NCBI GenBank assembly: GCA_903879985.1
Contig: CAIRNR010000007.1
Coordinates: 5,382-69,381, forward strand
Length of the DNA stretch: 64,000 bases
Reading direction: 5' to 3'
Source: an uncultured candidate division WWE3 bacterium
GTDB taxonomy: Bacteria > Patescibacteriota > WWE3 > UBA101185 > UBA10185
Shown here: in pieces, positions 16 to 29,771 of the stretch
Layout: the number at the start of each line of letters is the position of its first letter
How positions within the stretch are numbered: position 1 is the first letter of the stretch
Made by a program: the position numbers and the translations under genes
Notes under the pieces: generated by a model
Database searches by the model: none
What the model saw: only the letters and a program-made list of their open reading frames with translations
What the model was told of the DNA's origin: nothing

Positions 16-996
16 TTAACTAATAAAATTAAACAAATAACCTATCAGCATTACTCCAACTAAAGTAATCACCAAAAAAACAGCTAAAAGTTGCCAACGC
101 ATAACCTTTTTAAGAATCATCAATTCAGGAAAAGACACAGTAACTATTGCCGTCATAAAAGCCAAAGCCGTACCAAGTGGAACACCTTTTTGAACAAGAG
201 CTTCCATAATCGGAATTACGCTTACGGAATTCGCATAAAATGGCGCACCAAGCAATGTAGCAACAGGAACAGCCCACCATGTTCGCATGGATAAATACTT
301 TTCAACCAATGCTGCAGGAACAAAACCGTGAATTAATGCGCCTACTCCAACGCCTAAAATTACATAAGGAAAAACACTTTTTGTAATTGTCATGCCATCG
401 GACCAAAAATACTTTAATAACTCTACTTTGGATAATGCAACTCCCCCATTATCAAACTCAAGCTGTTGCTTAGACTTAAACTTTAATAACTCCGGTTTAA
501 CATACTTATCAAGGTGAAGTTTATGAATTAGCATCCCACCTAACATTGCTACTAAAATTCCTAACAAATTATAAATGATTGTTACTTTTAACCCAAACAT
601 TGCAGGAAATAAATAAAGTGAGGACTCATTTACCAGAGGTGAACTTATTAGAAATGCAAAAGTAACTCCTAAAGGTATACCGGCACCAACAAAACCAATA
701 AATAACGGTATTGAGGAGCACGAACAAAAAGGTGTTACCACACCAAGTAATGCAGCGAATAAATAATCTAGTCCAAACCAACGACGCTTTGCCAAAATGT
801 CCCTAACTTTTTCCATAGGAAAGTAATAGCGCGTTATAGCCATAACATAGTTGATTACGATTAAAAGTAAACCAATCTTAATGACATCATATATAAAAAA
901 GTTGAGAGTATCGCCAAGGTAAGAATTTTCAGTTAAATTAAACCACTTATATGTTACTAAGTCGGAAAAAAGTTGTAGAGGCTTAAAAATATCCAT
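16..996 (-). CDS. multi-TM permease with paired CxC motifs (COG0701/DUF318-like 'predicted permease')
   Basis: 326 aa, strongly hydrophobic throughout, with a 'CSCSS' motif. ATG at 996 was checked. It is the last gene of an arsR / thioredoxin-like / permease operon. Confidence 0.55.
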   Translation of the reverse strand: MDIFKPLQLFSDLVTYKWFNLTENSYLGDTLNFFIYDVIKIGLLLIVINYVMAITRYYFPMEKVRDILAKRRWFGLDYLFAALLGVVTPFCSCSSIPLFIGFVGAGIPLGVTFAFLISSPLVNESSLYLFPAMFGLKVTIIYNLLGILVAMLGGMLIHKLHLDKYVKPELLKFKSKQQLEFDNGGVALSKVELLKYFWSDGMTITKSVFPYVILGVGVGALIHGFVPAALVEKYLSMRTWWAVPVATLLGAPFYANSVSVIPIMEALVQKGVPLGTALAFMTAIVTVSFPELMILKKVMRWQLLAVFLVITLVGVMLIGYLFNFIS

Positions 997-999
997 GAA

Positions 1000-1296
1000 T
1001 TAACAACAACTTCCGCCACCGCAACTACAAGAAGATTTTTGTTCTGTAACTAAAGCACCAAATAAAATTGATTTCTTAATCTTTTCTATATCCTGGGAAC
1101 CACCGATCATGACAGGTTTTCCATTTACTGTTAAAACCGGACTGGTCATTATTCCCATTTCGATAATTTTTGTAACATCGGTTATATATTCCAACTCGAC
1201 ATCATCTTTAAGAGTCAGTTCTGTTATAGCCTGCTTTGTTAACTCAAATAATTTTTTACATGTAGGACAACCTGAACCTAAAACTTGAATATACAT
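1000..1296 (-). CDS. thioredoxin-fold redox-active disulfide protein (Thioredoxin_3-like)
   Basis: 98 aa with a 'GCPTCKK' CxxC motif near the N-terminus and a C-terminal Cys-rich tail 'SCSCGGGSCC'. It lies 3 nt upstream of the permease gene. Confidence 0.7.
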   Translation of the reverse strand: MYIQVLGSGCPTCKKLFELTKQAITELTLKDDVELEYITDVTKIIEMGIMTSPVLTVNGKPVMIGGSQDIEKIKKSILFGALVTEQKSSCSCGGGSCC

Positions 1297-1310
1297 AAAA
1301 CTCCTTAAAA

Positions 1311-1622
1311 TTAATACAACTCAAATAGCAAGTCAGTAACCTTTTTACCTTTAGCAGTCAACGAATAGTAAACGTATAACCCACGTTTTTCATCAGAAAC
1401 CATATCAATGTCTTTTAAATCTTTTAGGTGATGCGAAATTAAACTTTGAGATAGTTCCAGATGTTCCATAATTTCACAAACACAATGATCACCAGCACGC
1501 AATATACAAAGAATTTTTAGGCGGCTTTCTTCGCTCACAATTTTTAATAATGCTGTAATTGTAGCTACTTGTTGTGATTCTTTAGACGATTGTTCGCAGC
1601 AACTGCATGAACTCATGTTCAT
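1311..1622 (-). CDS. ArsR/SmtB family metalloregulator
   Basis: 103 aa. 'RLKILCILRAGDHCVCEIMEHLELSQSLISHHLKDLK' matches the ArsR HTH with the metal-binding CVC motif. Confidence 0.75.
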   Translation of the reverse strand: MNMSSCSCCEQSSKESQQVATITALLKIVSEESRLKILCILRAGDHCVCEIMEHLELSQSLISHHLKDLKDIDMVSDEKRGLYVYYSLTAKGKKVTDLLFELY

Positions 1623-1801: not shown

Positions 1802-2830
1802 TTACATGTGAATCATGCTTTCCAGTTTTACGCCAGATATTACCTTTCCGTTATTGATATCCCGTGCCTCGTTGCCTTGTCTGGCCTGTAGCACATAGGT
1901 ATCAGCCCTGATAAGTTGTCCCTCACGCCCAGTATCTCCTTCCAAAATCACACATTCGATGTATTCCTTTTGAAGGTTTTTTTCAGGGTCAGCGAGAAGG
2001 ACCAGCAGAACGTTATCCGCTCGTAAGAAAGCCGGTGTAGCCATTTTTAAGCCCCCCTCAACTTTCCACCAAACCTTCCGAGCCATGACGCCGATCTTTT
2101 CGGTACAGTCTTTGTTGCTAATCCAAACAACACCAACTGGATCGTGTTCACCAACATCGTCAAAGAAGACCGGTCCTTTGCCATAGGCATTGGCGATGAA
2201 GTTCAACAGCCCGTCGGGATCATCAGTAACGAAATCCCAATGTGCTGCAACATCATGCGGACCATCTGGGAACCATTGATGCTCACGATAAGTTCCATCT
2301 TCCATAGGGAAGTATGTACGATTGTGATCGCCCGGTACGTCTCTTATCATACCGTTTTCACGAGCTGCGCAGTTGACCCTATATGTTTCTTCATCGGGAA
2401 AACGCACGCCGACATGGTGAAGTTTGAGCGACTTTACCTCGCGATCATAAAGCGTCAGCAAAGCAAGCAGGCGATCGTGTTCTTGCGCCATTTTGCTTAC
2501 AGCAACGATCGTCCCGTTCAGTGCAACGCCGCCCATCCAATGAAGGCTCAGCTCATTGCTTTCGACTGGAGTCATCACGAGCTTTCCATCAAGACCAGCT
2601 CCTGCAAGGACCAGTTCGCCCATTTTACAGTAAGCTACATGCGGTGCGCGCGAAGTATTTCCTTCCGAAACGATACCCGCCCAGCCACCAAAAGCGACCA
2701 TATCACGGTCGGCTTCGACTGAGGCGACAACCACATAGGCGAAAATTCCCATTGCCTTGCACAGTTGTGCAGCAAATTCGTGGTTATCGTGGATACTCAT
2801 TACAGTATCAGCAGCATCTTCGTAATCCAT
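1802..2830 (-). CDS. hypothetical protein with atypical GC (likely start at internal Met 'MDYEDAAD', RBS AAAGGAGATGAAACA)
   Basis: The ORF is 1802..2950. An AAAGGAG Shine-Dalgarno sits in front of the ATG at 2830. The segment is clearly GC-richer than its neighbours. I recognise no family. Confidence 0.5.
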   Translation of the reverse strand: MDYEDAADTVMSIHDNHEFAAQLCKAMGIFAYVVVASVEADRDMVAFGGWAGIVSEGNTSRAPHVAYCKMGELVLAGAGLDGKLVMTPVESNELSLHWMGGVALNGTIVAVSKMAQEHDRLLALLTLYDREVKSLKLHHVGVRFPDEETYRVNCAARENGMIRDVPGDHNRTYFPMEDGTYREHQWFPDGPHDVAAHWDFVTDDPDGLLNFIANAYGKGPVFFDDVGEHDPVGVVWISNKDCTEKIGVMARKVWWKVEGGLKMATPAFLRADNVLLVLLADPEKNLQKEYIECVILEGDTGREGQLIRADTYVLQARQGNEARDINNGKVISGVKLESMIHM

Positions 2831-3033
2831 TGTTTCATCTCCTTTTTGATGATTGATTATTCCGCAAAATATTTGTTGCGGTTTTGGATAGCTAATATGC
2901 ACAATTATAAGTGAAAATAGCTTTTTGGTCAAACTATAGGATAACTGCACACAACAGTGTAGCTTCTAGGTAAAACTCTTCGGATCGATTATTCGTTTGG
3001 GTATACTGAAAAAGTTTCGATGTAACAATCTAA

Positions 3034-3150
3034 ATTACTTGGGGTGGCTTCCTAACAAAGTTTAGAACTGCAATTGAGGAAAACATTAACTACATTCCCA
3101 AATATCCAGAGTTTGAAGATGTAGCCATTTTGAACAAGAGATTTATATAA
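3034..3150 (+). pseudogene. copy 1 of orphaned 3' fragment of the serine-recombinase gene (…ITWGGFLTKFRTAIEENINYIPKYPEFEDVAILNKRFI*), begins at att core TTGGGGTGGC
   Basis: About 105 bp, roughly 90% identical to 4888..5004. The substitutions are synonymous or conservative in the + frame. There is no start codon. The core matches the antisense 3' end of tRNA-His. Confidence 0.7.
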
Positions 3151-3279
3151 CATTGTTCTTGTAACGCTGAAAACCACTGCAGTAACAGGCTTTTACTTAT
3201 AAATAATTTTTGATACAATGACGAAGTCAAATAACTTGAGCTGGAATGCTCTAAACCTAGTAGATAAAGGAGAAATACA

Positions 3280-3420
3280 ATGTCCAAAAATGGTCCTGAC
3301 GATGATGAAGATGAGGACACCCCAGATCCCGAAGACAACGACGCTGATGGTATCGGTGATGACGGTCAAGACGACTCGGGCGACGATGACAGTGACGACA
3401 GCGATACCGACGATCAATAA
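3280..3420 (+). CDS. 46-aa extremely acidic (poly-Asp/Glu) mini-protein
   Basis: A perfect AAAGGAG RBS sits 8 nt upstream of the ATG. The product is MSKNGPDDDEDEDTPDPEDNDADGIGDDGQDDSGDDDSDDSDTDDQ*. It is followed directly by a strong terminator. It is absent from the ORF track because it is shorter than 60 aa. Confidence 0.55.
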   Translation: MSKNGPDDDEDEDTPDPEDNDADGIGDDGQDDSGDDDSDDSDTDDQ

Positions 3421-3444
3421 TCGCTGAACTCGCAAAGCACTAAG

Positions 3445-3490
3445 TAGCTAGACACCAACCTAAAAGTTATGTCTAGCTATTCTTTTATTT
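3445..3490. terminator. bidirectional rho-independent terminator
   Basis: A perfect 10-bp stem TAGCTAGACA/TGTCTAGCTA with a 15-nt loop, then TTCTTTTATTT. It sits between the stop of the acidic gene (+) and the stop of the M16 gene (-). Confidence 0.65.
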
Positions 3491-3500
3491 GGCGTAGGTT

Positions 3501-4793
3501 TTATAGGTTGATTTTAATGCTTTGTACGAAAGCGTCATCTACAGAACCTGCTAAAGATAAATACCAATTGTTAGCTGTAAGGTATTTTTCAGTTACTCTT
3601 TTTATGTCCTCAATTGTTACTGATTCTACTTCTTTAAGGTAATCCTCAATTGTCCATGTATCATTTGGGTAATATAAATCTCTATAGTCATGCACATCTA
3701 CCCATGCTTCAGAGGTCTGCATCTTAGTTTTAGTTGATTTTGTTAGTCTGTTTTTAACTAATTGCAGTTCATCTGCTGTTGAACCTTCACTAGCCATTCT
3801 TTTTATTTCAATGCAAATTATATCTAATACTTCTTGCAATTTGCTCTTTGCAACCGATGTAGTTATGTTAAACGCACCGCCATCAACAAAAGAACCATTA
3901 TTTGAATTTATAGAATAAATAAGACCACGTTCGTAACGTAATTTCTTTATCAAAACACCTGTTCTTCCCCCCGCTAAAATACTTGCTAATAGACTTAGAG
4001 TTCTAGTGTCACTATTAGCCATATTCGGAGTTCTAAAACTTAAGCGGGTCTCTATACTTTTATTATCAAAAAAAGCGTATTCAATAACCTTATCCCTAAA
4101 AACGGGTAAGTCATTTTCAAAGATAGGTCTTTCGCCTTGAGGTAAAGATAGGTGCTTTTCCAATAGAGGTAGTAAGGTATCTTTACTTAAATCACCTGCA
4201 ACAATTATTGTAGCCAACGAGCTTTTAATAAACTTATGATAAAAACCTAGCATATCCTCTTTAGTTATACTTCCAATTGATTCTGCCGTGCCCAGATTGG
4301 ATTTTCCTACAACCGTTTTCTGATAAACAAGTGGTCTGGATATTTCCACTAACATTTTACTTGGATTTGATTTTTTAGATTCTAGCTCACGCAAAATTGC
4401 CCCACGCTCTTTTTCAATAGTTTTTTCATCAAATAGTGCATTTAATAGCACATCTGATACCAGTCTAATAGCCGACTCCGTGTCATGTGGGTCACCAAGA
4501 GAAACATTTATATCTAGCTTATCTGAACTTGTTGAAGCACCTATAGAACCTCCTAAGTCCTCAATAAAACCTGCCATTATATCTTTTGTAGGATAGGTTT
4601 TAGTACCTGCTAAGAGCATATGTTCCATAAAATGTGCTAAACCCTCTTTGCCTTCTGGGTCAAATCTTGAACCTGCAATAAAAGTAATAAGTAGGTGTAC
4701 AGGCATTTTAGTTCTATTAAATAGCACTACATGCGTTCCAGACGATAAATTAAAGGTTTCTCTTTTTACATTGAAGTCTTCTAGGGTAAACAT
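3501..4793 (-). CDS. M16 family zinc metallopeptidase (pitrilysin/insulinase-like), active-site HxxEH present
   Basis: 430 aa. 'HFMEHM' is the inverted zinc-binding motif, and the downstream E-rich region is typical of M16. ATG was checked at 4793. Confidence 0.8.
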   Translation of the reverse strand: MFTLEDFNVKRETFNLSSGTHVVLFNRTKMPVHLLITFIAGSRFDPEGKEGLAHFMEHMLLAGTKTYPTKDIMAGFIEDLGGSIGASTSSDKLDINVSLGDPHDTESAIRLVSDVLLNALFDEKTIEKERGAILRELESKKSNPSKMLVEISRPLVYQKTVVGKSNLGTAESIGSITKEDMLGFYHKFIKSSLATIIVAGDLSKDTLLPLLEKHLSLPQGERPIFENDLPVFRDKVIEYAFFDNKSIETRLSFRTPNMANSDTRTLSLLASILAGGRTGVLIKKLRYERGLIYSINSNNGSFVDGGAFNITTSVAKSKLQEVLDIICIEIKRMASEGSTADELQLVKNRLTKSTKTKMQTSEAWVDVHDYRDLYYPNDTWTIEDYLKEVESVTIEDIKRVTEKYLTANNWYLSLAGSVDDAFVQSIKINL

Positions 4794-4887
4794 ATTGCTA
4801 TGATAACACTATTTAGTATGCTTATCCTTTATGTTAGTTCTAACCTTGATTTGGGGTAATTAGTTTTATGTTGATGTGACAATTTAG

Positions 4888-5004
4888 ATATTTTGGGGTG
4901 GCTTCTTAACAAAGTTTAGAACTGCTATTGAGGAAAACATTAACTACATTCCCAAATATCCAGAGTTTGAAGATGTAAGCATTTTGAGCAAACGCTTTAT
5001 TTAG
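4888..5004 (+). pseudogene. copy 2 of orphaned 3' fragment of the serine-recombinase gene (…IFWGGFLTKFRTAIEENINYIPKYPEFEDVSILSKRFI*), begins at att core TTTGGGGTGGC
   Basis: The 11-bp core is identical to 17392..17402 inside the tRNA-His 3' end. The reading frame continues the serine recombinase ORF exactly (…SIWGG|FLTKF…). Confidence 0.7.
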
Positions 5005-5185
5005 TCTTTTCCGCTCCTATCTTCTTATTAAGCTCTTTTCGCTGTTCTGGTGTCATAGCTATAAATCTATCTATCATAAAATTAGCCAACTTATACATAT
5101 GCTCAACAGTTTTTACGATTTGTTCATCAGACATGCCTTTTGCAGTATCTCCAAGTATTGATTTAGCCTTTTCTAGCGTTACCAT
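4997..5185 (-). CDS. small hypothetical protein (62 aa; alternative start at Met18)
   Basis: The ORF is open, but there is no clear RBS. It overlaps the next small gene by 23 nt. Confidence 0.3.
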   Translation of the reverse strand: MVTLEKAKSILGDTAKGMSDEQIVKTVEHMYKLANFMIDRFIAMTPEQRKELNKKIGAEKTK

Positions 5186-5340
5186 CTGTTTCTTTCTTTT
5201 GAATTGGTTTGGTAATAACCTTCATAAAGTTAAAAAGTCTGTTTGCTTTATCAAAGGCTTCTGCGTCACTAAGCTCAACTCCAACCTCTTTTTTATAAAT
5301 CTGCTTAAATTCATCTATCGCTTCTTTTGGTAGTGTCATA
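5163..5340 (-). CDS. small (~59 aa) protein, paralogue of 14027..14218 (shared '…F(K)xxYxKxxGVEL(S/T)xxExxxKANxLxNF…')
   Basis: The start is placed at the internal Met 'MTLPKEAIDEF'. It aligns with the 63-aa product at the other end of the element. Confidence 0.45.
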
Positions 5341-5418
5341 CATAAAATAATACCCTCATAATGGCACTTCTGGTATATAATCCTGCTTAGGTATAGCAAA
5401 ATTAGGATAAATATAAAG

Positions 5419-6834
5419 ATGATAACTAAGACAGACTTTTTAGCTTATATAGACGCACCACGCCACTTTTGGGCTTTAAAAAACAATAAGTATGACCTAA
5501 CCCTATCCGATTTTGATAAACACCTGATAGAACAAGGCTACATAGTAGAAACTAAGGCGAGGGAATACGCTCAAAGATATCTGTTACCCAATTATTCAAC
5601 TGATGAAACTGACTTAGTTTTTCAAAGAGCTTGTGAAGACGGTGAATTTCAAGCTAGGTCTGATATTTTGATTAGAAACTCAACTACTAATAAATGGGAT
5701 ATTTACGAAGTAAAAAGTGTAACCAAACCTGAACCAGAGCATTATTATGACGCATGTTTCCAAACAATCATCTTTGAAGAGAACTTGGATATTGCAAATG
5801 TTTTTATCCTGCATGTGAACAATGACTATATACGAGAAGGTGATTTTGACTTGGGTTTGTTTATAAAAACAGAAGATGTAACTCAAAAAGTGAAAGAGTT
5901 AAAGGAAGACACCTTGAATAAAATGAAGGATTGCCTGTTTTTAGTTAGTACAGATAACTATAAACTCGCTACAGAGTGCTTCAAACCTAAGGAATGCCAC
6001 TGCAAAGAGCTTTGCTTTCCTAACCTACCAGCAGATTCAATCTACAATCTATCAAGAATTACAGAAAAGAAGATTTTAGAACTACGAGATAACGACATTT
6101 TGAATATAACCGATATACCTGATGACTTTAGTCTAACTTCAAACCAAAGGGTACAGGTGGCGGTAGCCAAAAGAAACGAAATACTTATAAATAAACAAGC
6201 CATTAAAAATGATTTAGAAGCACTCACCTACCCTCTATATTTTCTTGACTATGAAACCTACCCCTCTGCAATTCCAATGTATGACGGGTATAAACCTTAT
6301 CAACATATGGTGTTTCAATACTCACTACATATTTTAAAAAACCCAGACGATAAAGAGCTACAACACTACGAGTATGTTGTAACAACGCAAAATGAACCGT
6401 GCAAAGAGCTTCTAACACACATGAAACAGCATATTGGGGAAACAGGCAGTGTAATTGTTTGGTATAAACCATTTGAATGTTCCAGAAACAAAGAGATGGC
6501 AGAACTATGCCCAGACTTTGCTGATTTTATGGAATCGGTTAACGACAGGGTATACGACCTAATGGACATATTTAAAAATAACTATTATGTAGACCCAAAG
6601 TTTAAGGGCAGTAACTCAATTAAAGATGTTTTGCCTGTTTTAGTTCCAGAACTCAACTACAAAGCCTTAGATATTCAAAGTGGCACAATGGCAATGACTG
6701 GTTGGTACGAGATAGTTTATGAGAATAAAGACCAAGTAGAAAAAGATAAAATACTAAAAAATCTTTTAACTTATTGTGAGCAAGATACTTTAGCGATGGT
6801 AAAAATTTTGGAGTTTCTGACCAAGTTGGCATAG
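5419..6834 (+). CDS. two-domain nuclease: N-terminal Cas4/RecB-like PD-(D/E)xK domain + C-terminal DEDDy-type 3'-5' exonuclease-like domain (DUF2779-like architecture)
   Basis: The N-terminal part has 'DILIRN…WDIYEVKSV' (D…EVK) followed by a Cys cluster 'CFKPKECHCKELC'. The C-terminal part has 'LDYET', 'DLMD' and 'YCEQD', which match the ExoI/II/III motifs. Confidence 0.55.
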   Translation: MITKTDFLAYIDAPRHFWALKNNKYDLTLSDFDKHLIEQGYIVETKAREYAQRYLLPNYSTDETDLVFQRACEDGEFQARSDILIRNSTTNKWDIYEVKSVTKPEPEHYYDACFQTIIFEENLDIANVFILHVNNDYIREGDFDLGLFIKTEDVTQKVKELKEDTLNKMKDCLFLVSTDNYKLATECFKPKECHCKELCFPNLPADSIYNLSRITEKKILELRDNDILNITDIPDDFSLTSNQRVQVAVAKRNEILINKQAIKNDLEALTYPLYFLDYETYPSAIPMYDGYKPYQHMVFQYSLHILKNPDDKELQHYEYVVTTQNEPCKELLTHMKQHIGETGSVIVWYKPFECSRNKEMAELCPDFADFMESVNDRVYDLMDIFKNNYYVDPKFKGSNSIKDVLPVLVPELNYKALDIQSGTMAMTGWYEIVYENKDQVEKDKILKNLLTYCEQDTLAMVKILEFLTKLA

Positions 6835-6902
6835 TTACCAATACTAAGGCTTTTCTAAAAACTATTAGACTTGTAGAATGTTAATGGAGTTATTATATAA
6901 AT

Positions 6903-9257
6903 ATGAACACTATAAAGATTAAGCAATATCTTGATAAACAACAAATAAAGGTTGTAGAACTATACGATTTTGAAAACAAGAAGGTAAGGTATTCAGAAAA
7001 AATCAAGGGTTGGAAAATTGATAAATTCAGAGGTGATGAGGAAATAGTACGAGCTTACATTTTAGCTAAGCTAGTTAACGAACTAGGCTACAAACCAGAA
7101 AACATTGAGCTTGAGAAAGAATACGATATTGGCAGACCTAAAGTAAATAAACCCCGAATTGATATTATTGTTAGAGACGATAACGGAAACGCTTTTCTGT
7201 ATATAGAGCTAAAAAGCCCCCTAGATTACGAAAAAGACAAAGACGAGGTAATAGAAAAACAACTATTTAACCTAGCGTCACAAGAACAAGGTCAAGGCAG
7301 AAAAGTAAAATACTTAACACTATATTCAGTAGAAATTGTTAATGACGAAATAAAAGATAAAACAATCCTTATTGATTATGAAAAATTTAACTCCTTTGAC
7401 CAATGGAAAGAGATACGAAATTATGCAGATGAACTACCAATACGCTACGGAAAAGCCCAGAAAGAACCTTATGTAAAGGGCGGAAAGAAAGATTTAGATA
7501 GCAATTTTTCTCATACACAGCTAGATGCTTTGCGAAAAAATTTACATAATGTACTTTGGGGTGGTGGTGGAACAGACGACAATGATGTATTTTCCTCACT
7601 GGTTAATATAATTCTTGCAAAAATCCAAGATGAGAGTGAGAAAAAAGTTAGTGAAGTTTATGATTTCCAAATCAGGTCATATCAAGACGGCGACAGCTTT
7701 GAGAGCAATGACCAACTATTTGACAGAATAAATGCACTATATAGGAGAGCCTTACACGATAGACTTAATGTTGATGGAGCTAAAATAGCCAAGTCTTACA
7801 TAATTGACGAAAATAAATTTTCTCTTAACAAATTAAAGTACACAGTTTCAGAGCTTGAGAGATTATCATTTGTTGAAGGAAAAAATCAACTTACTGGAAA
7901 AGACATTTTAGGAGACTTTTTTGAGGGCATAATTAGAGAAGGATTCAAACAAAGCAAAGGACAGTTTTTTACGCACATCAATGTAGTTAAGTTTATTCTT
8001 TGGGGGTTACAACTGGATAAATTAGCTACAGAAAAGGTAAATAAGGAGCAAGAATTACCTTATATTATAGACCCAAGTGCAGGTAGTGGGACTTTCCTTA
8101 TTGAGTACATGAAGTACATTACTCAAAATATAAAATACCGATTTAAGAACAAGCTAGATACTTCATATAATATCCAGAAAAAACTTCAATCATGGTTTTA
8201 CCCTGATAATTTTGAGAACAAATGGGCAGAGCAATACATATACGGTAGTGATATTAACTTTAATCTAGGTACAGCTACAAAAGTTAACATGATACTACAT
8301 GGCGATGGTTCAGCTAATGTATTTGTGAAAGACGGATTATTGCCTTTTAACTTCTATAAGAATTTATTAGCGGATAGCACACCAGATAATACCTACTATG
8401 ATAAAGATGTAAACGGTAAATTTGATGTAATAATAACCAATCCGCCATTTAGTGTTGACTTAGATAACGATACAAAGAAAAGTGTAAAAAAAGACTTTAT
8501 ATTTGGGGATAAGAAAAATTCAGAAAACCTATTTATTGAAAGATACTACCAACTACTTAAACCTAACGGTAGGTTTGGAATAGTATTACCCGAAAGTGTA
8601 TTTGATACTACGGAAAATAAGTATATCCGCTTATTTATATACAAATACTTCAAAATTAAGGCAATAGTCTCACTACCTCAATCCACATTTGAGCCTTTTA
8701 CTAGTACAAAAACCAGTCTATTGTTTGCTCAAAAGAAAACTAAAGCAGAGATACAAGAATGGGATAGCCTTTGGACAAAGTATTCAAATGAGTGGAATAC
8801 TCTGAAAACTAGGGCTAATAATCTAGTGGACACATACACAAGTGAGAAGGATAGAAATAAACTAACTTCTATTAGAGACCTTAACGAAGGCGAAGAAAAA
8901 GAGATTCTTAATAAAATACTCAAAAACTACATAGAAAAAGAAGATGCTAACCTTACACCTAAAGCACTTGTTGAAAAGTATGAAGGTGAATTAAAAGAGC
9001 TTTGTAAATACGATGCTGACACAAAAGAAGCCTATGGCTTTGTAAATACTTGGTGGGTATTTGGAGAGGTTTCAAAAGAACTAAATTATAAAATTCTTAT
9101 GACAGAGATAGCTAATGTCGGTTACAAGAGAAGTAAAAGAGGCGAAAAGCCTATGCCAAACGAGTTGTTTAGAGAAGATGATAAAGGACAGGTTTTAGTA
9201 GATGACGGGATACTAGAAACAGCTTTAGACTATCTTAGAAATTTAGAGTGGGAATAG
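6903..9257 (+). CDS. BcgI-like type IIB restriction-modification A subunit: N-terminal PD-ExK endonuclease domain fused to gamma-class N6-adenine DNA methyltransferase
   Basis: 784 aa. The N-terminus has 'IDIIVRD…FLYIELKSP' (D…ELK). Methyltransferase motif I 'DPSAGSGTFL' precedes motif IV 'IITNPPFS'. A specificity-subunit gene follows. Confidence 0.75.
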   Translation: MNTIKIKQYLDKQQIKVVELYDFENKKVRYSEKIKGWKIDKFRGDEEIVRAYILAKLVNELGYKPENIELEKEYDIGRPKVNKPRIDIIVRDDNGNAFLYIELKSPLDYEKDKDEVIEKQLFNLASQEQGQGRKVKYLTLYSVEIVNDEIKDKTILIDYEKFNSFDQWKEIRNYADELPIRYGKAQKEPYVKGGKKDLDSNFSHTQLDALRKNLHNVLWGGGGTDDNDVFSSLVNIILAKIQDESEKKVSEVYDFQIRSYQDGDSFESNDQLFDRINALYRRALHDRLNVDGAKIAKSYIIDENKFSLNKLKYTVSELERLSFVEGKNQLTGKDILGDFFEGIIREGFKQSKGQFFTHINVVKFILWGLQLDKLATEKVNKEQELPYIIDPSAGSGTFLIEYMKYITQNIKYRFKNKLDTSYNIQKKLQSWFYPDNFENKWAEQYIYGSDINFNLGTATKVNMILHGDGSANVFVKDGLLPFNFYKNLLADSTPDNTYYDKDVNGKFDVIITNPPFSVDLDNDTKKSVKKDFIFGDKKNSENLFIERYYQLLKPNGRFGIVLPESVFDTTENKYIRLFIYKYFKIKAIVSLPQSTFEPFTSTKTSLLFAQKKTKAEIQEWDSLWTKYSNEWNTLKTRANNLVDTYTSEKDRNKLTSIRDLNEGEEKEILNKILKNYIEKEDANLTPKALVEKYEGELKELCKYDADTKEAYGFVNTWWVFGEVSKELNYKILMTEIANVGYKRSKRGEKPMPNELFREDDKGQVLVDDGILETALDYLRNLEWE

Positions 9258-9258
9258 T

Positions 9259-10653
9259 ATGGCACTGAAACAGTTTACAACTGATTTTAAAAGCATCGGT
9301 AACCAAGAGTTTCTAAGACCAAATGTCGGCTATAGATACTTTTTTGATATTAAAAAATCAATGGTATTTAAAAACCCGATAACTACCCAATTGAAATACA
9401 TATTAAAACCATTACTTTCAAATAAAATTCCAAAGGGTGAATTGGATAGTAGAGAAATTCTAGTTGATTTGGCAAACATTGAAAGAAGATACAACTCACT
9501 AGTAAACCTAGAGGAAGTTAATCAGATTGGCTCGGACAAAAATATACTAAACTTCGGCGATATAGTAATACCTAAGATTCAACCACAAATGGGTAACATT
9601 TTTCTTAATACCGACCATACTAGGTATGTAGCTTCAACGGAGTTGCTTGAATACACGGTATGCCAAGACCATAACCCAGTATTTGTTTACTACTTAATAA
9701 CTTCCAAACAATTTCTAGCTGACCTTGAGAGGCTTGAGGGTGGAAAAACACACAGGAGAGTAAATCCCACAGACCTTTTAAAAATAAGAATACCTACCCT
9801 TAGTAAAAGACACCAAGACCAAGTAGTTACCGAAATTGAGCCAATAGCCATAAAAATTCAGGCACTTAAAACGGATATTAAACCACAACAAGAAATTATA
9901 GATAAAGTTTTTGTACGGGAATTTAAATTTAATAAAGCAAATTTTGACCAACTATCAAAAATTAAAATGTATGAAACTACTTTTTCAGAGTTCGCAAATA
10001 ACATAGATGTTCGCTATAGCGTCAAATTCCATAGAAATGCTGGTGCATTTGTCTTAGCGGAATTAAAGAAAGTAACTAACAAAAAGATTAAACACTTCAT
10101 TGCAGAACCAATTGTATTGGGTACTAGTGTATCCCCTTCGGATTACGACGAAAACGGCGATTATTACTACATATCAATGGCAAATATAAAGAACTGGAAA
10201 TTTGAAAACGATGACGCAAAACTTGTTTCAAATGAGTATTCAAAGAAAAACCAGAATAAAACAATAGCTTTAAACGATATTTTAATTGCCCGTTCTGGTG
10301 AGGGAACAATTGGGAAAGTTGCTTTAATAGAAGATGAGGAACTACTGGGCATTTTTGCGGACTTTACAATGAGAATTAAGTTAAAAGACTATAACCCAAC
10401 ATTTGCCTACTACTATTTTAGAACAACTTACTTTCAATACCTGATTGAAATTAACAAGAAAGGTTTAGGCAATAACACAAACATCTTCCCAAGCCAAATT
10501 CAAGAACTCCCCATGATGGATATTCCATTAGCTAGACAAGAAAAAATAGTTCAAGAGATTAAAAAAGAGCTAGAAGAACAAAATGTTATTAGAAGTTCTA
10601 TAGAGCAAGAAAGAGCAAAGATTGATGAAATTATTGAGAAGGCAATACAATGA
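9259..10653 (+). CDS. restriction-modification specificity (S/B) subunit with two target-recognition domains
   Basis: 464 aa. There are HsdS-type conserved spacers 'IRIPTLSKRHQDQVVTEIE' and 'IPLARQEKIVQEIKKELEEQ'. The start overlaps the stop of the upstream gene. Confidence 0.75.
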   Translation: MALKQFTTDFKSIGNQEFLRPNVGYRYFFDIKKSMVFKNPITTQLKYILKPLLSNKIPKGELDSREILVDLANIERRYNSLVNLEEVNQIGSDKNILNFGDIVIPKIQPQMGNIFLNTDHTRYVASTELLEYTVCQDHNPVFVYYLITSKQFLADLERLEGGKTHRRVNPTDLLKIRIPTLSKRHQDQVVTEIEPIAIKIQALKTDIKPQQEIIDKVFVREFKFNKANFDQLSKIKMYETTFSEFANNIDVRYSVKFHRNAGAFVLAELKKVTNKKIKHFIAEPIVLGTSVSPSDYDENGDYYYISMANIKNWKFENDDAKLVSNEYSKKNQNKTIALNDILIARSGEGTIGKVALIEDEELLGIFADFTMRIKLKDYNPTFAYYYFRTTYFQYLIEINKKGLGNNTNIFPSQIQELPMMDIPLARQEKIVQEIKKELEEQNVIRSSIEQERAKIDEIIEKAIQ

Positions 10654-11378
10654 ACAAATTTAAAACATCAGCTATAACCATACTCACCGAAACAGGTAAA
10701 CCCCTACACTATAAGGAAATAACCCGTCTAGCACTTGATAAAGGAATTTTAGTTACTGATGGTGCAACTCCTGACGCTTCAATGAACGCCCAAATAGTAA
10801 TGGATATAAAACAAAACGGTAAACTCTCAAATTTTATTAAGACAGAGCCTTCCACCTATGGTTTAAACCCAAATATACAAAAAGCTGTTAATGAGCCAGA
10901 GGAAGACATAGCGCAAGAGGAAAAACAAGCCGTAGATAGCGGTTATATCGGAAAAGCAGGAGAATACATAGTGTGCAGTGAACTGCTTTTTAGAGGATTT
11001 AATGCCAGTATTATGAGTGTTGATACAGGTGTTGATATTGTAGCTACCAAAGAAAGCCGACTGTATGGCGTACAAGTAAAGACTGCAAGACTTAATAAGT
11101 TCAATACTTATGTTTTTGATGTTCGCAAGGTTTCATTTGAGAGACACAGTAGTGGTAGTACATTTTATATTTTTGTTCTATATAGCGAGAAGAAAACTAA
11201 TTTTCTGATTCTCCCCTATTTTGAAATTGAAAAGAAAGTACATGACAAAGTTATACTAGAAGTTGGTCACGGACTACGCTACAGAATAAACATTAAACTG
11301 CGTAATGACAGCGTATATCTTGGAACTTTAGACAATGAGATGAACTACTTTTTGAATAATTGGGCGGTGCTAAAGTAA
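10650..11378 (+). CDS. Mrr-like restriction endonuclease (HARE-HTH/Mrr_N winged helix + Mrr-type PD-(D/E)xK catalytic domain)
   Basis: The N-terminal 'GKPLHYKEITRLALDKGILVTDGATPDASMNAQIV' fits HARE-HTH. The C-terminal 'GEYIVCSELL…VDTGVDIVATK…YGVQVKT' fits the Mrr_cat D-x-G-x-D…QxK pattern. There is an ATGA overlap with the S subunit. Confidence 0.55.
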   Translation: MNKFKTSAITILTETGKPLHYKEITRLALDKGILVTDGATPDASMNAQIVMDIKQNGKLSNFIKTEPSTYGLNPNIQKAVNEPEEDIAQEEKQAVDSGYIGKAGEYIVCSELLFRGFNASIMSVDTGVDIVATKESRLYGVQVKTARLNKFNTYVFDVRKVSFERHSSGSTFYIFVLYSEKKTNFLILPYFEIEKKVHDKVILEVGHGLRYRINIKLRNDSVYLGTLDNEMNYFLNNWAVLK

Positions 11379-11496
11379 ACAACTTATTTAGGTAAAAACT
11401 ATCCCCGTATGACAACAAATAAATAGATTGACTTATAAAATTGCGGTATAATAGCCGTATTCCTGCCTATGTTAGTTAACGAATATAAATATAAAA

Positions 11497-12681
11497 ATGA
11501 CAAAAAGACAATTTACAATATCGCACTTTGTGCAGAATATAAACATAGACTTGCTAGAGGCTTATTTTAATCAAGCTAATTTACCTTTCCCAAACAATTT
11601 AAAAACTACAGACAAAGACAAAAAACCAAATGCTCAAGATATTGAAACGCTTATAAACTCACTTGAGACTAAAGCTCAAGAAAAAATAAACAACGATTTC
11701 ATAGATATTAACGAGCTGTCCTATGACGGCGGTATTCTTTCAATTATTGATGTTGGAAATGTTTACAACATCAATTTAACCGAAGAACTAAGTAGCCTTG
11801 AAGATAACACGAACCAAGCACTTTACTGCTTTCTAAACCATAAAGGGGTATTTGAAAACGCCTCAAAAATAGCTTACTTTGAAAGACTTTCATCAAAAAC
11901 TGTTAGAAACGATATGGTTAAAAAGACAGCACAAGAAGTCTCAAATGAAGAAGTTAAAAATGCCTTAGAAACCGAACTTAAAACATATTTTAAACAAAAA
12001 GACGGTAGAGGCGAAAATTGTAAAATTGATGTTACAATCTACAAAAATAGAGTGTTTTATCGTGCGTATCCTCAAAACTATTCCCAGTTTTTATTTGATT
12101 ACGATGAAGAAGGTAAATACAGACGAAGTGTAGTTAAACCTGTCTTTGAGGTTATTTTTATCTATTATCCAGACGATGGTAGATTAGAACTTAGTGTTAA
12201 CTTTAGAAATAAACGCAGACGAGAGCTAATTGAAATTTTTAGCCGAATTGTTCTAAAAGATGACCGCACGATTAAAGACGAACTGCAAACTTACGATTTT
12301 GACAGGATAGTTTCTCCTGATTTTACTATGCCCACTAAACTTGAAGATAAAGTATCTTGGGCTTACCTAAAGCAATTAAGACTAAGCTACAGATATACTA
12401 CTGCAAGAAAAATTACACTTGAAGTTGATGACAAAAATACCGATGGAGCTAAAGCAATTCACGAAATGATTAAAGAGTATGGGCTTAATACCGAACAATT
12501 GTTTGTAACTCAAGCAACTTTCAAGATTAAGTTTGAAGGAGCAGGTAATAAGGGTAGCGTCACAGCTATGATTACATATCCCGACAAGTGTAACCTATCG
12601 GACATTGCAACACACCAATTGGCTAAAGATTATATAAAATACTGGAAATTGGAGTTATCAGATAATGAAGGAAATAACTAA
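11497..12681 (+). CDS. hypothetical protein (394 aa), no recognisable motifs
   Basis: A long ORF with a perfect TATAAT at 11447..11452 upstream. It overlaps the next gene by 17 nt. Confidence 0.5.
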   Translation: MTKRQFTISHFVQNINIDLLEAYFNQANLPFPNNLKTTDKDKKPNAQDIETLINSLETKAQEKINNDFIDINELSYDGGILSIIDVGNVYNINLTEELSSLEDNTNQALYCFLNHKGVFENASKIAYFERLSSKTVRNDMVKKTAQEVSNEEVKNALETELKTYFKQKDGRGENCKIDVTIYKNRVFYRAYPQNYSQFLFDYDEEGKYRRSVVKPVFEVIFIYYPDDGRLELSVNFRNKRRRELIEIFSRIVLKDDRTIKDELQTYDFDRIVSPDFTMPTKLEDKVSWAYLKQLRLSYRYTTARKITLEVDDKNTDGAKAIHEMIKEYGLNTEQLFVTQATFKIKFEGAGNKGSVTAMITYPDKCNLSDIATHQLAKDYIKYWKLELSDNEGNN

Positions 12682-13600
12682 TTTCGCCAATTATTTAGCG
12701 GTAAACCAAGATACTAGCTTTTCAGAAAGTATTTTGAAAGTAAATCTACCAACAATTTTCCAAACACTAGTAGATAGAGGCATTTTAGCCCCTACAACAC
12801 CCGTAGATAGCGTGAGGTGCAAAGAATGTGACTTAGACCACCTAGAACAAGTAATTGAAGTAAACCACCGATACTTTACAAAATGCGAATACAGCGAAGA
12901 CGCCTCGTTATCAGAAGTTCAACTAGACGAACTAAATGGCTATCGCTTTAGTTTGAGTGCTTTACTGGCTTGGATAGCAGAAACCTTAGTAACGCAAACC
13001 GACATTAAACAATTGAATGATGCTACTTGGGGTATAGGCAAAAAGGCTACACAGAACATTTATTTTATTAAATCAATTGACCAGAAAGAAGCTCAAAACG
13101 AAGTAAAGAAAATTAACACCGAAAATAACATATTTCTATGGTTGGGAGTAAATTCACCTGTTGGGTATTCAACAACCGAACTAGTATCAATACAGGAAGT
13201 AATTAAAATTAGTAGTAAAGGCTTGGAAGTTCAAGCTATTAAAGTTAAATCTAAAAAAGCTAAACCAAACCAGAAAGATATTGTCTTAGATAAAGATATT
13301 GTAATAACAAACAATTTCTATCTTCTACTTAACCTTGAAAACGGTGCTTTTAATTATAAGGTAAAAACATTACCACAAACATATAGAATAGTTAGATACC
13401 TGTATGACCAAAGAAAATATGGTAAAGCGTATACCTCTAAAGAGCTAAGCGAAGCTCTACAATTGGATAATCCAAAGGTTATTCCAACCAGAATAAAAGA
13501 ACTAAACAACAAATGTGAGGAACATAAAGTCAAAAGTATTGTACTCACATACCCAAATAATACATGGGCATTAAACCCAGATTTAACTTGTTTTAATTAA
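12665..13600 (+). CDS. hypothetical protein (311 aa), possible C-terminal winged-helix
   Basis: GGAG sits 10 nt upstream of the ATG. The gene is translationally coupled to 11497..12681. 'YRIVRYLYDQRKYGKAYTSKELSEAL' looks wHTH-like. Confidence 0.5.
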   Translation: MKEITNFANYLAVNQDTSFSESILKVNLPTIFQTLVDRGILAPTTPVDSVRCKECDLDHLEQVIEVNHRYFTKCEYSEDASLSEVQLDELNGYRFSLSALLAWIAETLVTQTDIKQLNDATWGIGKKATQNIYFIKSIDQKEAQNEVKKINTENNIFLWLGVNSPVGYSTTELVSIQEVIKISSKGLEVQAIKVKSKKAKPNQKDIVLDKDIVITNNFYLLLNLENGAFNYKVKTLPQTYRIVRYLYDQRKYGKAYTSKELSEALQLDNPKVIPTRIKELNNKCEEHKVKSIVLTYPNNTWALNPDLTCFN

Positions 13601-13674
13601 GGTCACTAAAGTAGTCACAAAATCATAATGTGACTTAACATTTCCATAAATAAGAAAAATATAGATGTAGTAAT

Positions 13675-13706
13675 AGAGCCATATAGTAAGGCTCTTTTTT
13701 GTTTTT
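13675..13706 (+). terminator. rho-independent terminator after the 311-aa gene
   Basis: An AGAGCC…GGCTCT hairpin followed by TTTTTTGTTTTT. Confidence 0.6.
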
Positions 13707-13773
13707 ACCTAAAAACTTGACAGAGCATTTTTGTGACCAATATCACTAACGCATAGAAAGTTCAAAGATAAAC

Positions 13774-14037
13774 ATGAAAGAAAATAAAGATTTATTTACA
13801 ACATATAACCTAAACTTTTCGGCAGTTCTTATAGCTAGTGGCATTAAGTTACAAGGAGTTAATAACGGGCTTGGGTCTAAGTCTCTCTTTTGTTTTGAAA
13901 ATTCTCTAAAAATACAGGATATAAACGACAAGTATTGGAGAAAAGAATTAAAGATTGAACCTCAATTACTCTTTGATAGCTTGAAATTCCTTAAAAACAG
14001 ATTGTATAGCGGTTTGGAGAATAACGATGGTTTCTAG
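13774..14037 (+). CDS. small hypothetical protein (87 aa)
   Basis: The ORF is preceded by a TTGACA -35-like hexamer at ~13717. It overlaps the next gene by 11 nt. Confidence 0.4.
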   Translation: MKENKDLFTTYNLNFSAVLIASGIKLQGVNNGLGSKSLFCFENSLKIQDINDKYWRKELKIEPQLLFDSLKFLKNRLYSGLENNDGF

Positions 14038-14218
14038 AGAAGGCTTAGTGAAATTTAAAGAACTTTACGCCAAGCGTTATGGAGTTGAACTTACTGAAAA
14101 GGAAGTCTCCGAAAAAGCTAACCAATTACTTAATTTCTATCGGGCAGTTTTTAGAGAACCAACAAATATAAAAATAAATATAACCTATGAGCAAAAAATA
14201 CGAAGTAAGAAAAATTAA
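14027..14218 (+). CDS. small protein (63 aa), paralogue of 5163..5340
   Basis: Shares the conserved 'YxKRYGVELTEKEVSEKANQLLNF' block with the protein at the other end of the element. Confidence 0.45.
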   Translation: MVSREGLVKFKELYAKRYGVELTEKEVSEKANQLLNFYRAVFREPTNIKINITYEQKIRSKKN

Positions 14219-14603
14219 AACAAAAAGGTCTTACACCTTTAAAGAAATAGCAGATTTGTTTGATGTCCATGTACGCACTATTCAAGCATGGCATGTAGAC
14301 GGATTAGTAACTCTTGAAGGTAGTAACAATCCATATCTAGTTATGGGTATTGATGTACAAAACTATATTAAACAGCAAAAACAAAAGCACAAAGTAGCTC
14401 TTAAAGAAAATGAGTTTTACTGCATAAGCTGTAGAAAAGCTGTTACCCCAACAGAAGTTTTTTCAAATTCAAATGGTATCAAAATGGGTGGTAATAAACA
14501 GTCGGTTATATTGAGCGGTGTTTGCCCAACTTGTAACCGAAAAGTGAACCGATTTACAACAAACGAACAGTCTATTTTAGAGGGGAAAAGCAATACTATA
14601 TAG
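14187..14603 (+). CDS. HTH + C-terminal zinc-ribbon protein (excisionase/recombination-directionality-factor or regulator candidate)
   Basis: 'YTFKEIADLFDVHVRTIQAWHVDGL' is MerR/Xis-like HTH. It also carries CxxC…CxxC ('CISCRK…CPTCNRK'). It lies immediately upstream of the two recombinase genes. Confidence 0.45.
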   Translation: MSKKYEVRKIKTKRSYTFKEIADLFDVHVRTIQAWHVDGLVTLEGSNNPYLVMGIDVQNYIKQQKQKHKVALKENEFYCISCRKAVTPTEVFSNSNGIKMGGNKQSVILSGVCPTCNRKVNRFTTNEQSILEGKSNTI

Positions 14604-14659
14604 GCACTAGAATATCCCTTTGAAGACTGACATTAGTAATTAGTTATTTAGGAAACAAT

Positions 14660-15745
14660 ATGAACAAATATAAAACGAAAAATGAAAAGATAAAGAGAAG
14701 ATATTTTAAATGGTTAAAAGATGCCGAAGGTTTTGCACCTGCTACCATTGAAAGCATTGAAAAAGCCTTATGGGATTACGAAGCATTTAGCCAAGAAGAT
14801 GACTACGCAAATTTTAACGACAAGATGGCTCAAGGGTTTAAAAAATGGCTCTCGGAAAAAAAGCTACAAAGTGGTGAAACCATCAACCTTTCAACTCAAT
14901 ACGATAGGCTTAGACACCTTAAAAAGTTTTTTACTTGGTTATCTGGACAGGTTGGTTATAAATCAAAAGTTGACCCCTACGATGCAAATTATCTACGCCT
15001 TGATAAAAAATTGGCAAAAATTGCAACTGCACCTAAAGTTGAGGATTACCCAACACTTGAGTATGTTAAAAAGCTATGTGATTCAATTGAAATTAAAAGC
15101 GAAATTGACCAAAGGGATAGAGCTTTAATTGCATTCACATTGTTAAGCGGTATGCGAGATAAAGCTATAATCACACTTCCACTTGGTTGCTTTAATCCTG
15201 AAACTTATCAAGTAAAACAATATCCTTCCGAAGGTGTGCAAACCAAGTTCTCTAAAACTATTGATACGGTCTTGTTTCAATTTGATGAGAAGCTATTAAG
15301 CTATATTGTTGATTGGGTTAAACACTTAAAAGAAAATAAAGTATTTGGTATTACTGACCCCTTGTTTCCATCAACTAAAATTGAGCAAATGTCTAAGACT
15401 GAATACATATTTGAGGCTAAAGGTGTTGAACCTATATTTTGGCGTTCAACAAGCACAATGTGCAAGATATTTGAGGAAAGAGCTAAGTTTGCTGAACTTA
15501 AATACTATTCACCTCATAAGTTCCGCCATTCTGCTACTAGATTGGCTACGGACAGTTGCAAAAGTGCCGAGCAAATTAAAGCTGTAAGTCAAAACTTGGG
15601 TCATGAGCATGTGAGTACAACGCTTTTAACCTACGGAAGACTTACACCTTATAGAGTGCGTGATGTTGTGACCGAGCTAAATTTCAAGAAAACAGAACGA
15701 GACGAAAAGATTGAGGAAATTAAAAAACTAATGTCACAGATATAA
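14660..15745 (+). CDS. tyrosine-type site-specific recombinase/integrase
   Basis: 361 aa. The C-terminal catalytic signature is 'FRHSATRL…LGHEHVSTTLLTYGRL' (R…HxxR…H…Y). The N-terminal part is a SAM-like core-binding region. Confidence 0.85.
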   Translation: MNKYKTKNEKIKRRYFKWLKDAEGFAPATIESIEKALWDYEAFSQEDDYANFNDKMAQGFKKWLSEKKLQSGETINLSTQYDRLRHLKKFFTWLSGQVGYKSKVDPYDANYLRLDKKLAKIATAPKVEDYPTLEYVKKLCDSIEIKSEIDQRDRALIAFTLLSGMRDKAIITLPLGCFNPETYQVKQYPSEGVQTKFSKTIDTVLFQFDEKLLSYIVDWVKHLKENKVFGITDPLFPSTKIEQMSKTEYIFEAKGVEPIFWRSTSTMCKIFEERAKFAELKYYSPHKFRHSATRLATDSCKSAEQIKAVSQNLGHEHVSTTLLTYGRLTPYRVRDVVTELNFKKTERDEKIEEIKKLMSQI

Positions 15746-15791
15746 TATAATTAACTTGATACTATAAACTTATAATTGTAAGGTTATTGTA

Positions 15792-17471
<1,680 letters not shown>

Positions 17472-29398: not shown

Positions 29399-29473
29399 GG
29401 GGGCGTAGCTCAGTGGTAGAGCATCTGCCTTTTAAGCAGAGTGTCGTGGGTCCGATCCCCACCGCCCTCACCA
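29399..29473 (+). tRNA. tRNA-Lys (TTT)
   Basis: Acceptor GGGGGCG/CGCCCTC, D-arm GCTC/GAGC, anticodon loop CTTTTAA, T-arm GTGGG/CCCAC, and an encoded CCA. Confidence 0.85.
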
Positions 29474-29618: not shown

Positions 29619-29771
29619 ATGTCCCCGTATCACGGTCCTGGAGAAGGTGACGAGGAAGAGTCCGCCGGTGAACAAGAAGAAGCCGCACAAACTGAGGAAG
29701 AACAGCTTTGGTCTCAGCGTGAGGAAGAACTTGAAGCACAGGGCGGATATACCGGCGACGAAGAAACTTAA
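29619..29771 (+). CDS. 50-aa acidic (Glu-rich) mini-protein, paralogue-like of 3280..3420
   Basis: GGAAAGGAG RBS. The product is MSPYHGPGEGDEEESAGEQEEAAQTEEEQLWSQREEELEAQGGYTGDEET*. The opening 'MS..GP' plus acidic run is the same as in the other copy. It lies 145 nt downstream of tRNA-Lys. Confidence 0.45.
   Translation: MSPYHGPGEGDEEESAGEQEEAAQTEEEQLWSQREEELEAQGGYTGDEET

Follow-up and report, generated by a model that had tools for sequence, protein, structure and literature searches.

The window analysed here, 64,000 nucleotides (nt) of contig CAIRNR010000007.1 (positions 5,382 to 69,381, forward strand) from an uncultured candidate division WWE3 bacterium, carries at 3280..3420 a short open reading frame (ORF) for a hyper-acidic microprotein of 46 amino acids (aa). 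We find that this ORF is almost certainly a genuine, independently transcribed protein gene. Its product represents an undescribed small-protein family of uncultured Patescibacteria (candidate phyla radiation, CPR) and falls outside Ocr/ArdA, PF11617, Pup/UBact and the tested classes of peptides made by ribosomes and modified after translation (RiPPs). As to function, we lean tentatively towards a disordered cation-binding microprotein whose invariant core would dock on a partner, most likely the adjacent M16B peptidase, as substrate or regulator. That the microprotein binds metal, and that it interacts physically or functionally with M16, we infer from the comparisons described below.

The microprotein gene and its family

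The gene, its expression signals and its convergent neighbour are:

3192..3219, forward strand: promoter-like site, with -35 TTTACT, a 16-nt spacer and extended -10 TG-a-TACAAT
3266..3272, forward strand: Shine-Dalgarno sequence AAAGGAG, with a 7-nt spacer to the ATG
3280..3420, forward strand: hyper-acidic microprotein gene, an ATG-initiated ORF of 46 aa, net charge -23
3443..3491, forward strand: intrinsic-terminator hairpin with T-tract, common to the microprotein gene and the convergent M16 gene
3501..4793, reverse strand: zinc peptidase of type M16B (pitrilysin/insulinase family), 430 aa, both Pfam M16 domains present

Translation of 3280..3420 on the forward strand gives MSKNGPDDDEDEDTPDPEDNDADGIGDDGQDDSGDDDSDDSDTDDQ, exactly as quoted in an earlier note on this DNA. 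The protein begins with MSKNGP; a linker, acidic and variable, leads to the invariant core PDPEDNDADGIGDDGQDD, within which a Dx[DN]xDG motif spans D19-G24, and an Asp/Ser tail follows. Counting showed 24/46 residues to be acidic (52%; 21 D and 3 E), short of the "about 70%" given in that note. The AAAGGAG ribosome-binding site (RBS) is present as described, at a spacing of 7 nt and not 8; the same heptamer stands ahead of the ATG at the orthologous locus L086, and GAAAGGAG is found in a further relative, L091. The -10 block of the promoter-like site, TTTGATAYAATGAC, is also kept at L086. Downstream, the terminator was confirmed to have a perfect 10-bp stem, TAGCTAGACA (3445-3454) pairing with TGTCTAGCTA (3470-3479) and extending to 12 bp. 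The hairpin at 3443-3481 has a folding energy of -18.2 kcal/mol (z = -4.6 vs shuffles) and is followed by the T-tract TTCTTTTATTT; a simple terminator scanner made no call there because of its 15-nt loop. The hairpin recurs at the L086 ortholog with a compensatory C:G -> G:C change in its stem.

Codon-level comparison provided evidence for translation. L086 carries a 37-aa ORF, MSGNGPDPEDDDADGIGNDGQDDPGDDNSDDSPSESA, in the same position convergent to M16. Between this ORF and that of the window 16 codons are identical, 12 differ synonymously and 10 nonsynonymously; differences at codon positions 1/2/3 number 8/5/19, and a 27-nt indel is in frame. Over a core of 26 codons compared among three lineages, the proportion of synonymous differences (pS) is 0.75-0.91, which is saturated, and that of nonsynonymous differences (pN) is 0.06-0.14. 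The ATG, RBS, stop, -10 box and terminator are likewise conserved. Saturated pS together with low pN demonstrates translation of the frame with purifying selection acting on it, and the pattern rules out a chance ORF, an element acting only as RNA, the overlapping frames and horizontal copying of recent date. The earlier proposal of a genuine small protein gene is thus borne out by the conserved frame, RBS and terminator and by a nonsynonymous rate (dN) far below the synonymous rate (dS). Furthermore, the core is more conserved than the neighbouring housekeeping peptidase, and the microprotein therefore probably has a specific role.

Antisense ORFs over 3280..3420, reported previously, are present, as are alternative-frame ORFs (frames +1, -0 and -2 are open there). 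Small ORFs with at least 33% Asp plus Glu occur in the window only at 3280..3420 and 29619..29771, and about 1 Mb of other fetched DNA contained no such ORF besides homologues of these two. The gene had been called unannotated; this holds for the track of ORFs of at least 60 aa but not publicly, where the exact 46-aa protein has already been called by gene callers in 32 blocks of public assemblies. An Rfam scan detected tRNAs alone in the window, with zero matches at 2900-5100. The window has a GC content of ~36%, its tRNAs are scattered singly, and the longest contig on which these proteins occur measures 715 kb, all of which is compatible with a CPR/Patescibacteria chromosome. The names of the samples (BUCK21, ANAN16) hint at metagenomes from lakes and aquifers.

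Comparison of loci, phmmer and a profile search together recovered a conserved family of 8 members, ~37-46 aa long and rich in Gly and Pro, and not the lack of conservation expected of a random low-complexity stretch. Every member comes from a metagenomic contig, and the M16 homologues linked to those peptide contexts that could be read bear Patescibacteria names. One further short member, P0123 (41 aa), was obtained by an exhaustive phmmer search of 1.84 billion representative proteins, and P0125-P0129 were recovered by a three-sequence profile search. The family core, PDPEDNDADGIG(D/N)DG(Q/M)DD, spans 17-18 residues and is nearly invariant. Outside it, the family alignment shows mostly MSxx(x)GP at the N-terminus, then an acidic linker that varies in length, and an Asp/Ser tail, with net charges from -13 to -23.

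Other search strategies failed on these peptides. A word-indexed homolog search with the single peptide returned zero matches, for which its low complexity is the likely cause. A two-peptide alignment pattern run against metagenome contigs gave 573 pattern matches, 0 of them upheld by tblastn, and a degenerate DNA pattern for DADGIG[DN]DGQDD gave 0 matches, being too strict as most members have Met instead of Gln. More generally, low-complexity masks and word indexes make standard homology tools miss such families, and synteny combined with codon-level analysis recovers them. The small genomes of CPR/Patescibacteria hold many genes that lack annotation, and microproteins are routinely left out when they are annotated. 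In this setting the family offers a clean case of a strongly constrained CPR microprotein with a suggestive protease partner and a patchy distribution.

Three members, P0127, P0128 and P0129 (on contigs of 986, 2869 and 1117 nt), end at the same point, just past ...GIGxDGMDD or GMGD. These cut-offs suggest a tendency of assemblies to break off within the GAY-rich tail, a possible reason why protein databases under-represent the peptide family.

Disorder, the core motif and the M16 peptidase

AlphaFold2, given a 7-sequence alignment, returned a predicted local distance difference test score (pLDDT) of 58, a predicted template-modelling score (pTM) of 0.15 and zero secondary structure; the microprotein is thus predicted to be intrinsically disordered. 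The Dx[DN]xDG motif, as DNDADG or DDDADG, is found in 7/8 members, P0126 having DNEPDA. After D19-N-D21-A-D23-G24 the core continues I-G-D/N-D, and an Asp or Asn at +9 and +10 of the motif is conserved in the family, in a region for which no order is predicted. Outside the family, the sole phmmer matches were proteins made of PF11617 "putative metal-binding motif" repeats, with DNDGDG or DNDCDG. Membership of this Cu-binding_MopE family (PF11617) was considered and rejected: there is no Pfam match for any peptide, the family has zero Cys, and the likeness amounts to weak phmmer similarity to P0121 and P0122.

It has been previously reported that Dx[DN]xDG is a calcium-binding linear motif, known from ordered structures (Rigden et al. 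2011, PMC3123361). The core shares this linear motif with the EF-hand loop, Excalibur, the thrombospondin type-3 repeat and dockerin (PMC3123361), but here the motif is single and has zero predicted fold, no flanking helices, no Cys pair and no +12 Glu. Parallels are also found among disordered proteins, in which Excalibur-like and condensed-charge Asp motifs bind Ca2+ at ~100 uM (PMC8391695). Like DSS1, prothymosin-alpha and Starmaker (PMC8391695), the microprotein is short, disordered and Asp-dominated, and has one EF-loop-like stretch, condensed negative charge and a lone hydrophobic residue inside the motif. Those examples are largely eukaryotic, whereas the present microprotein is bacterial (CPR), stands alone, has a fixed genomic partner and shows no detectable homology to them. 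From the motif, the PF11617-type similarity and the analogy with Ca2+-binding disordered proteins, we can reasonably infer that the microprotein binds cations.

The convergent M16 peptidase reported earlier was found at 3501..4793 with both Pfam domains, and has an intact HFMEH active-site motif at residue 54. Its closest named homologues are from Patescibacteria, WWE3 and Saccharimonadales metagenome-assembled genomes. M16 adjoins the peptide gene at 3/3 readable loci (window, L086 and L091), in two relative orientations. In the window and in L086 the two genes are convergent, and the L086 M16 is 70% identical to that of the window; in L091 the peptide gene is upstream and co-directional, and M16 starts 162 nt downstream. 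The N-terminal fragment of M16 that is available from L091 is 53% identical to the window's, and its full-length relatives are ~41% identical. Apart from the peptide gene, M16 has zero neighbours common to both sides of this deep split between the window and L091.

In the mechanism that we propose, the core would form a Dx[DN]xDG-type loop, with "condensed-charge" tails on either side, that holds Ca2+ or a different hard divalent cation. The invariant non-acidic residues of the core (P-D-P, A and G-I-G) would dock on a specific protein partner. The likeliest partner would be the neighbouring M16B peptidase, an enzyme whose enclosed chamber takes unfolded peptides of the microprotein's size, and the microprotein would then be its dedicated substrate or regulator. 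If the link is functional, the single-gene M16B peptidases of CPR, which are widespread but uncharacterised, would gain in the microprotein a first substrate or regulator; the microprotein would also provide a bacterial case of a stand-alone disordered Ca2+-motif microprotein.

Several observations weigh against this reading. The earlier note had offered a link to M16 as its fallback idea, and while the adjacency holds at all three readable loci, 9 contigs with an M16 ortholog have no peptide gene beside it (L085, L087, L088, L089, L090, L092, L093, L094 and L095). They represent 8 distinct loci, L092 and L093 being counted as one as they carry the same M16 protein. Some of these enzymes are close relatives, that of L085 being 76% identical to the window's and that of L092/L093 80% identical to L091's. 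M16 can therefore do without the peptide, whose gene has often been lost or moved. In L085 the flanking element described below is retained with M16 only 17 nt away, and in that gap the window has a ~350-nt peptide cassette; the peptide gene thus behaves as an indel. The three adjacencies may moreover be of common ancestry, one M16 inversion being enough to interconvert both layouts, or may reflect just co-residence at a tRNA-His hotspot, a doubt that arises because in the window as in L091 an element resembling an attachment (att) site lies ahead of the peptide gene. M16 enzymes characteristically favour basic or hydrophobic cleavage sites. The window's M16 is itself mildly acidic (net -7), and among the M16s compared there was no trend of net charge or isoelectric point with presence of the peptide. 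As for the metal, a Ca2+ ligand at the canonical +12 Glu is not evident in the family, and Pfam Ca-binding repeat models score on none of the peptides.

Three further observations concern M16. Both the peptide P0128 and the M16 protein P0022 derive from an ENA contig whose length is exactly 2869 nt, which may be a further case of the adjacency. In L088 (136-6323), where M16 is 63% identical, an 8-nt overlap joins the gene to the end of a set resembling a type IV secretion system (PrgI, TraC-like and DUF87/AAA_10/TraG P-loop), with which it is apparently operonic, a different context. A scan of genome contigs with the M16 query was swamped by LAHFMEHM and returned 21-32% identical M16s from unrelated phyla, which carry no synteny information.

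The tRNA-His hotspot and a second acidic microprotein

Further features of the window that bear on the history of the gene pair are:

3019..3149, forward strand: 131-nt direct repeat, copy 1, containing TTGGGGTGGC and resembling an attL junction
4873..5003, forward strand: 131-nt direct repeat, copy 2, spanning the left island junction (4892-4902)
4903..17391, no strand assigned: strain-variable integrative island, 12.5 kb, absent from contig L001
17394..17470, reverse strand: tRNA-His, the integration site, whose 3' end adjoins the island
29619..29771, forward strand: second acidic microprotein, 50 aa, Glu-rich (16 Glu), net charge -17

Contig L001 is 100% identical to the window where it covers it, and joins window position 4902 to 17392 via an 11-nt overlap. 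This junction defines 4903..17391 as a strain-variable integrative island at tRNA-His, both ends of which carry the 11-nt core TTTGGGGTGGC (left junction 4892-4902). The island encodes DUF2779, a fused HsdR_N/N6-methylase (784 aa) with a type-I-like specificity subunit, HARE-HTH/PD-(D/E)XK, a tyrosine integrase and a large serine recombinase. The serine-recombinase ORF (15792-17459, forward strand) overruns the island boundary by 66 nt into the tRNA-His gene, so that its last ~20 codons come from chromosomal DNA when the island is integrated. The ancestral order SBP_bac_5 - tRNA-His - M16 is retained in L085, L086 and L087. Seen from the island, the peptide gene is located beyond M16; it is not part of the island and is unchanged in island-free L001.

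The two 131-nt repeats are 89% identical and flank the peptide gene and M16 on both sides. Each copy begins with the tRNA-His 3'-end core and holds TTGGGGTGGC, the complement of the tRNA-His 3' end, a 10-mer that occurs 3 times in the window against 0.07 occurrences expected by chance. A related bipartite element, TGGGGTGGC-N13-TTAGAACTG...CArrGTkTGAA, recurs in two other species, beside M16 in L085 (2128-2215) and, in L091 (529-600), at 170 nt upstream of the peptide gene. The repeat has no Rfam match, and its consensus RNA structure is weak with zero covariation. A mobile-element ancestry, as the earlier note implied, is thus conceivable: the pair lies between att-like repeats at the tRNA-His hotspot, but the gene is outside the 12.5-kb island. 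The peptide-M16 pair may be the residue of an older element at this hotspot; the 131-nt repeat may be an attL scar of a tRNA-His-targeting element family, and peptide and M16 would then be old cargo.

The second ORF at 29619..29771 and the tRNA-Lys at 29399..29473 both exist as described, the peptide gene lying 146 nt downstream of the tRNA. The gene has an extended -10 (TGATATAAT) and GGAAAGGAG, and its 50-aa product has been called by gene callers in 38 blocks of public assemblies. The earlier note took it for a second member of the same family, a claim that failed on alignment: BLASTP produced none between the two peptides at E <= 100, and hhalign gave a probability of 0.3%. Both begin MS-x(2,3)-GP (MSx3GP in the second) and both are acidic, and they have nothing else in common. 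This N-terminal motif is found at no other of the 1942 candidate starts in the window and at 9/35,517 background starts. The second peptide may, judging from sequence, belong to the same class as the first family, membership of the family itself not being demonstrable. Its gene is not adjacent to any M16, and the contigs at hand that carry it are all identical. We found no second att copy of tRNA-Lys that would place it in an islet.

Competing explanations

The strongest competitor, which we regard as quite possible if doubtful, is a free-standing polyanion with no connection to M16, such as a cytoplasmic cation buffer, a counter-ion or a chaperone-like protein. The M16 neighbourhood would then be inherited synteny at the tRNA-His hotspot. 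The nine peptide-free M16 contigs fit this explanation, as does the TGGGGTGGC-N13-TTAGAACTG att-like element at the window, L085 and L091, by which the common context is perhaps historical. A second acidic microprotein with the same N-terminal motif lies away from M16, and the gene's own promoter and terminator make it monocistronic. However, a generic polyanion needs no 17-residue core with fixed Pro, Ala, Ile and Gly amid saturated synonymous sites, and the adjacency to M16 has outlasted an orientation change and the turnover of all other neighbours. If the microprotein were only a generic polyanion, it would be a minor curiosity.

A more elaborate version of the link to M16 strikes us as unlikely. 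Microprotein and M16 would form a dedicated two-gene module, once cargo of a tRNA-His-targeting integrative element whose att scars still surround it, in which M16 either processes the peptide to a 17-residue Ca2+-binding effector or is gated by it; this would be a CPR-specific peptide-protease system not recognised before. Within such a module, the MSx2-3GP N-terminus of both acidic microproteins could be a recognition tag.

It is also rather improbable that the microprotein is the precursor of a minimal RiPP-like or signalling system, from which M16 would trim the variable N- and C-terminal parts to free the conserved core. The architecture is suitable in that variable flanks surround an invariant core, and a length of 37-46 aa with predicted disorder suits M16 chambers. 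Moreover, a short peptide gene adjoins M16 in three lineages, and M16 enzymes mature pyrroloquinoline quinone (TIGR02110 PqqF is a weak match here) and class III lanthipeptides (PMC10885120). In PqqA-PqqF/G, subtilosin-AlbE/F and class III lanthipeptide-PttP1/P2 (PMC10885120) a short unstructured peptide gene likewise adjoins an M16B gene. Unlike those pairs, the present one has no modifying enzyme or exporter nearby, is convergent in 2/3 loci and includes one M16 gene, not a heteromeric pair. No radical SAM, YcaO, LanKC, ATP-grasp or exporter gene was found within ~10 kb in the window or the related contigs; the window neighbours are ArsR, thioredoxin, ArsP, an ORF of unassigned family, DUF2779 and restriction-modification (RM) genes, and L086 has SBP_bac_5 and a subtilase as neighbours. 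The peptide lacks Cys, a signal peptide and any Lys or Thr pattern suited to known cross-links, and M16, which is single-copy and widespread in the group, usually occurs without the peptide. A graspetide or other RiPP was rejected, as no tailoring enzyme is nearby.

Two other candidates were also set aside. An Asp-sensing leader peptide (attenuator) does not fit, since in the window and in L086 the gene converges on M16 and ends at a terminator of its own, only the L091 copy being co-directional. Pup and UBact carry a conserved C-terminal GGQ/GGE. The microprotein resembles them as a short, acidic, disordered bacterial protein, but a modifier of this kind was rejected because the C-terminus is not conserved in the family (DDQ, ESA, SEK, SES) and no ligase, deamidase or proteasome genes are nearby.

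The earlier note gave first place to an Ocr/ArdA-like DNA mimic acting as an anti-restriction factor of a mobile element. We consider it very unlikely that the microprotein is such a DNA or polyanion mimic, blocking restriction enzymes or other DNA-binding proteins as an anti-defence leftover of an integrative element. Small size and extreme negative charge (-13 to -23) are shared with Ocr and ArdA, and acidic disordered regions are able to mimic the charge of DNA (PMC10987829, PMC2755895). The gene is also the first one inward of the attL-like junction at the tRNA-His site in the window and L091, and an RM island occupies the same integration site. Nevertheless, Ocr is a protein of 116 aa per monomer whose dimer mimics 24 bp (PMC3439906, PMC2806950), and ArdA is a rigid folded DNA mimic (PMC2731889). 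Both are folded and dimeric, 116-166 aa long and found on phages, plasmids or integrative and conjugative elements, whereas the microprotein (37-46 aa) is unfolded by prediction, chromosomal and without homology to either. Pfam, NCBIfam and PADLOC gave zero matches for the peptides even at E <= 10, as did a PDB sequence-profile search for the family. IMG/VR searched by protein and DNA patterns, and phage and plasmid collections searched by tblastn, also gave zero matches, results that low-complexity filters weaken. The gene lies outside the active RM island and is unchanged in the identical island-free contig, and the peptide is conserved in relatives whose contigs show zero RM genes. Long-term purifying selection on the chromosome, together with an invariant non-acidic motif, points instead to a housekeeping-type partner.

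Finally, the notion that 3280..3420 is no protein gene, with a chance frame in GAY-rich low-complexity DNA or a functional RNA or overlapping frame in its place, is scarcely credible: although other frames are open and homology tools mostly fail on the peptide, the third-position bias is confined to the proposed frame, saturation of synonymous sites goes with low pN, start, RBS and stop are conserved with indels in frame, and there is neither an Rfam match nor a comparable ORF in the ~1 Mb of control DNA.

On the left flank of the gene pair, a 382-codon ORF at 1802-2950 (reverse strand) has 47% GC compared to 35% for the genome and no Pfam or PADLOC match; it is split into two genes (260 aa and 80 aa) in other assemblies of the species and may have been horizontally acquired. 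Just to the left of this GC-rich ORF, at 16-1622 (reverse strand), lies a small operon encoding an ArsR-family regulator, a thioredoxin-like protein and an ArsP-type permease.

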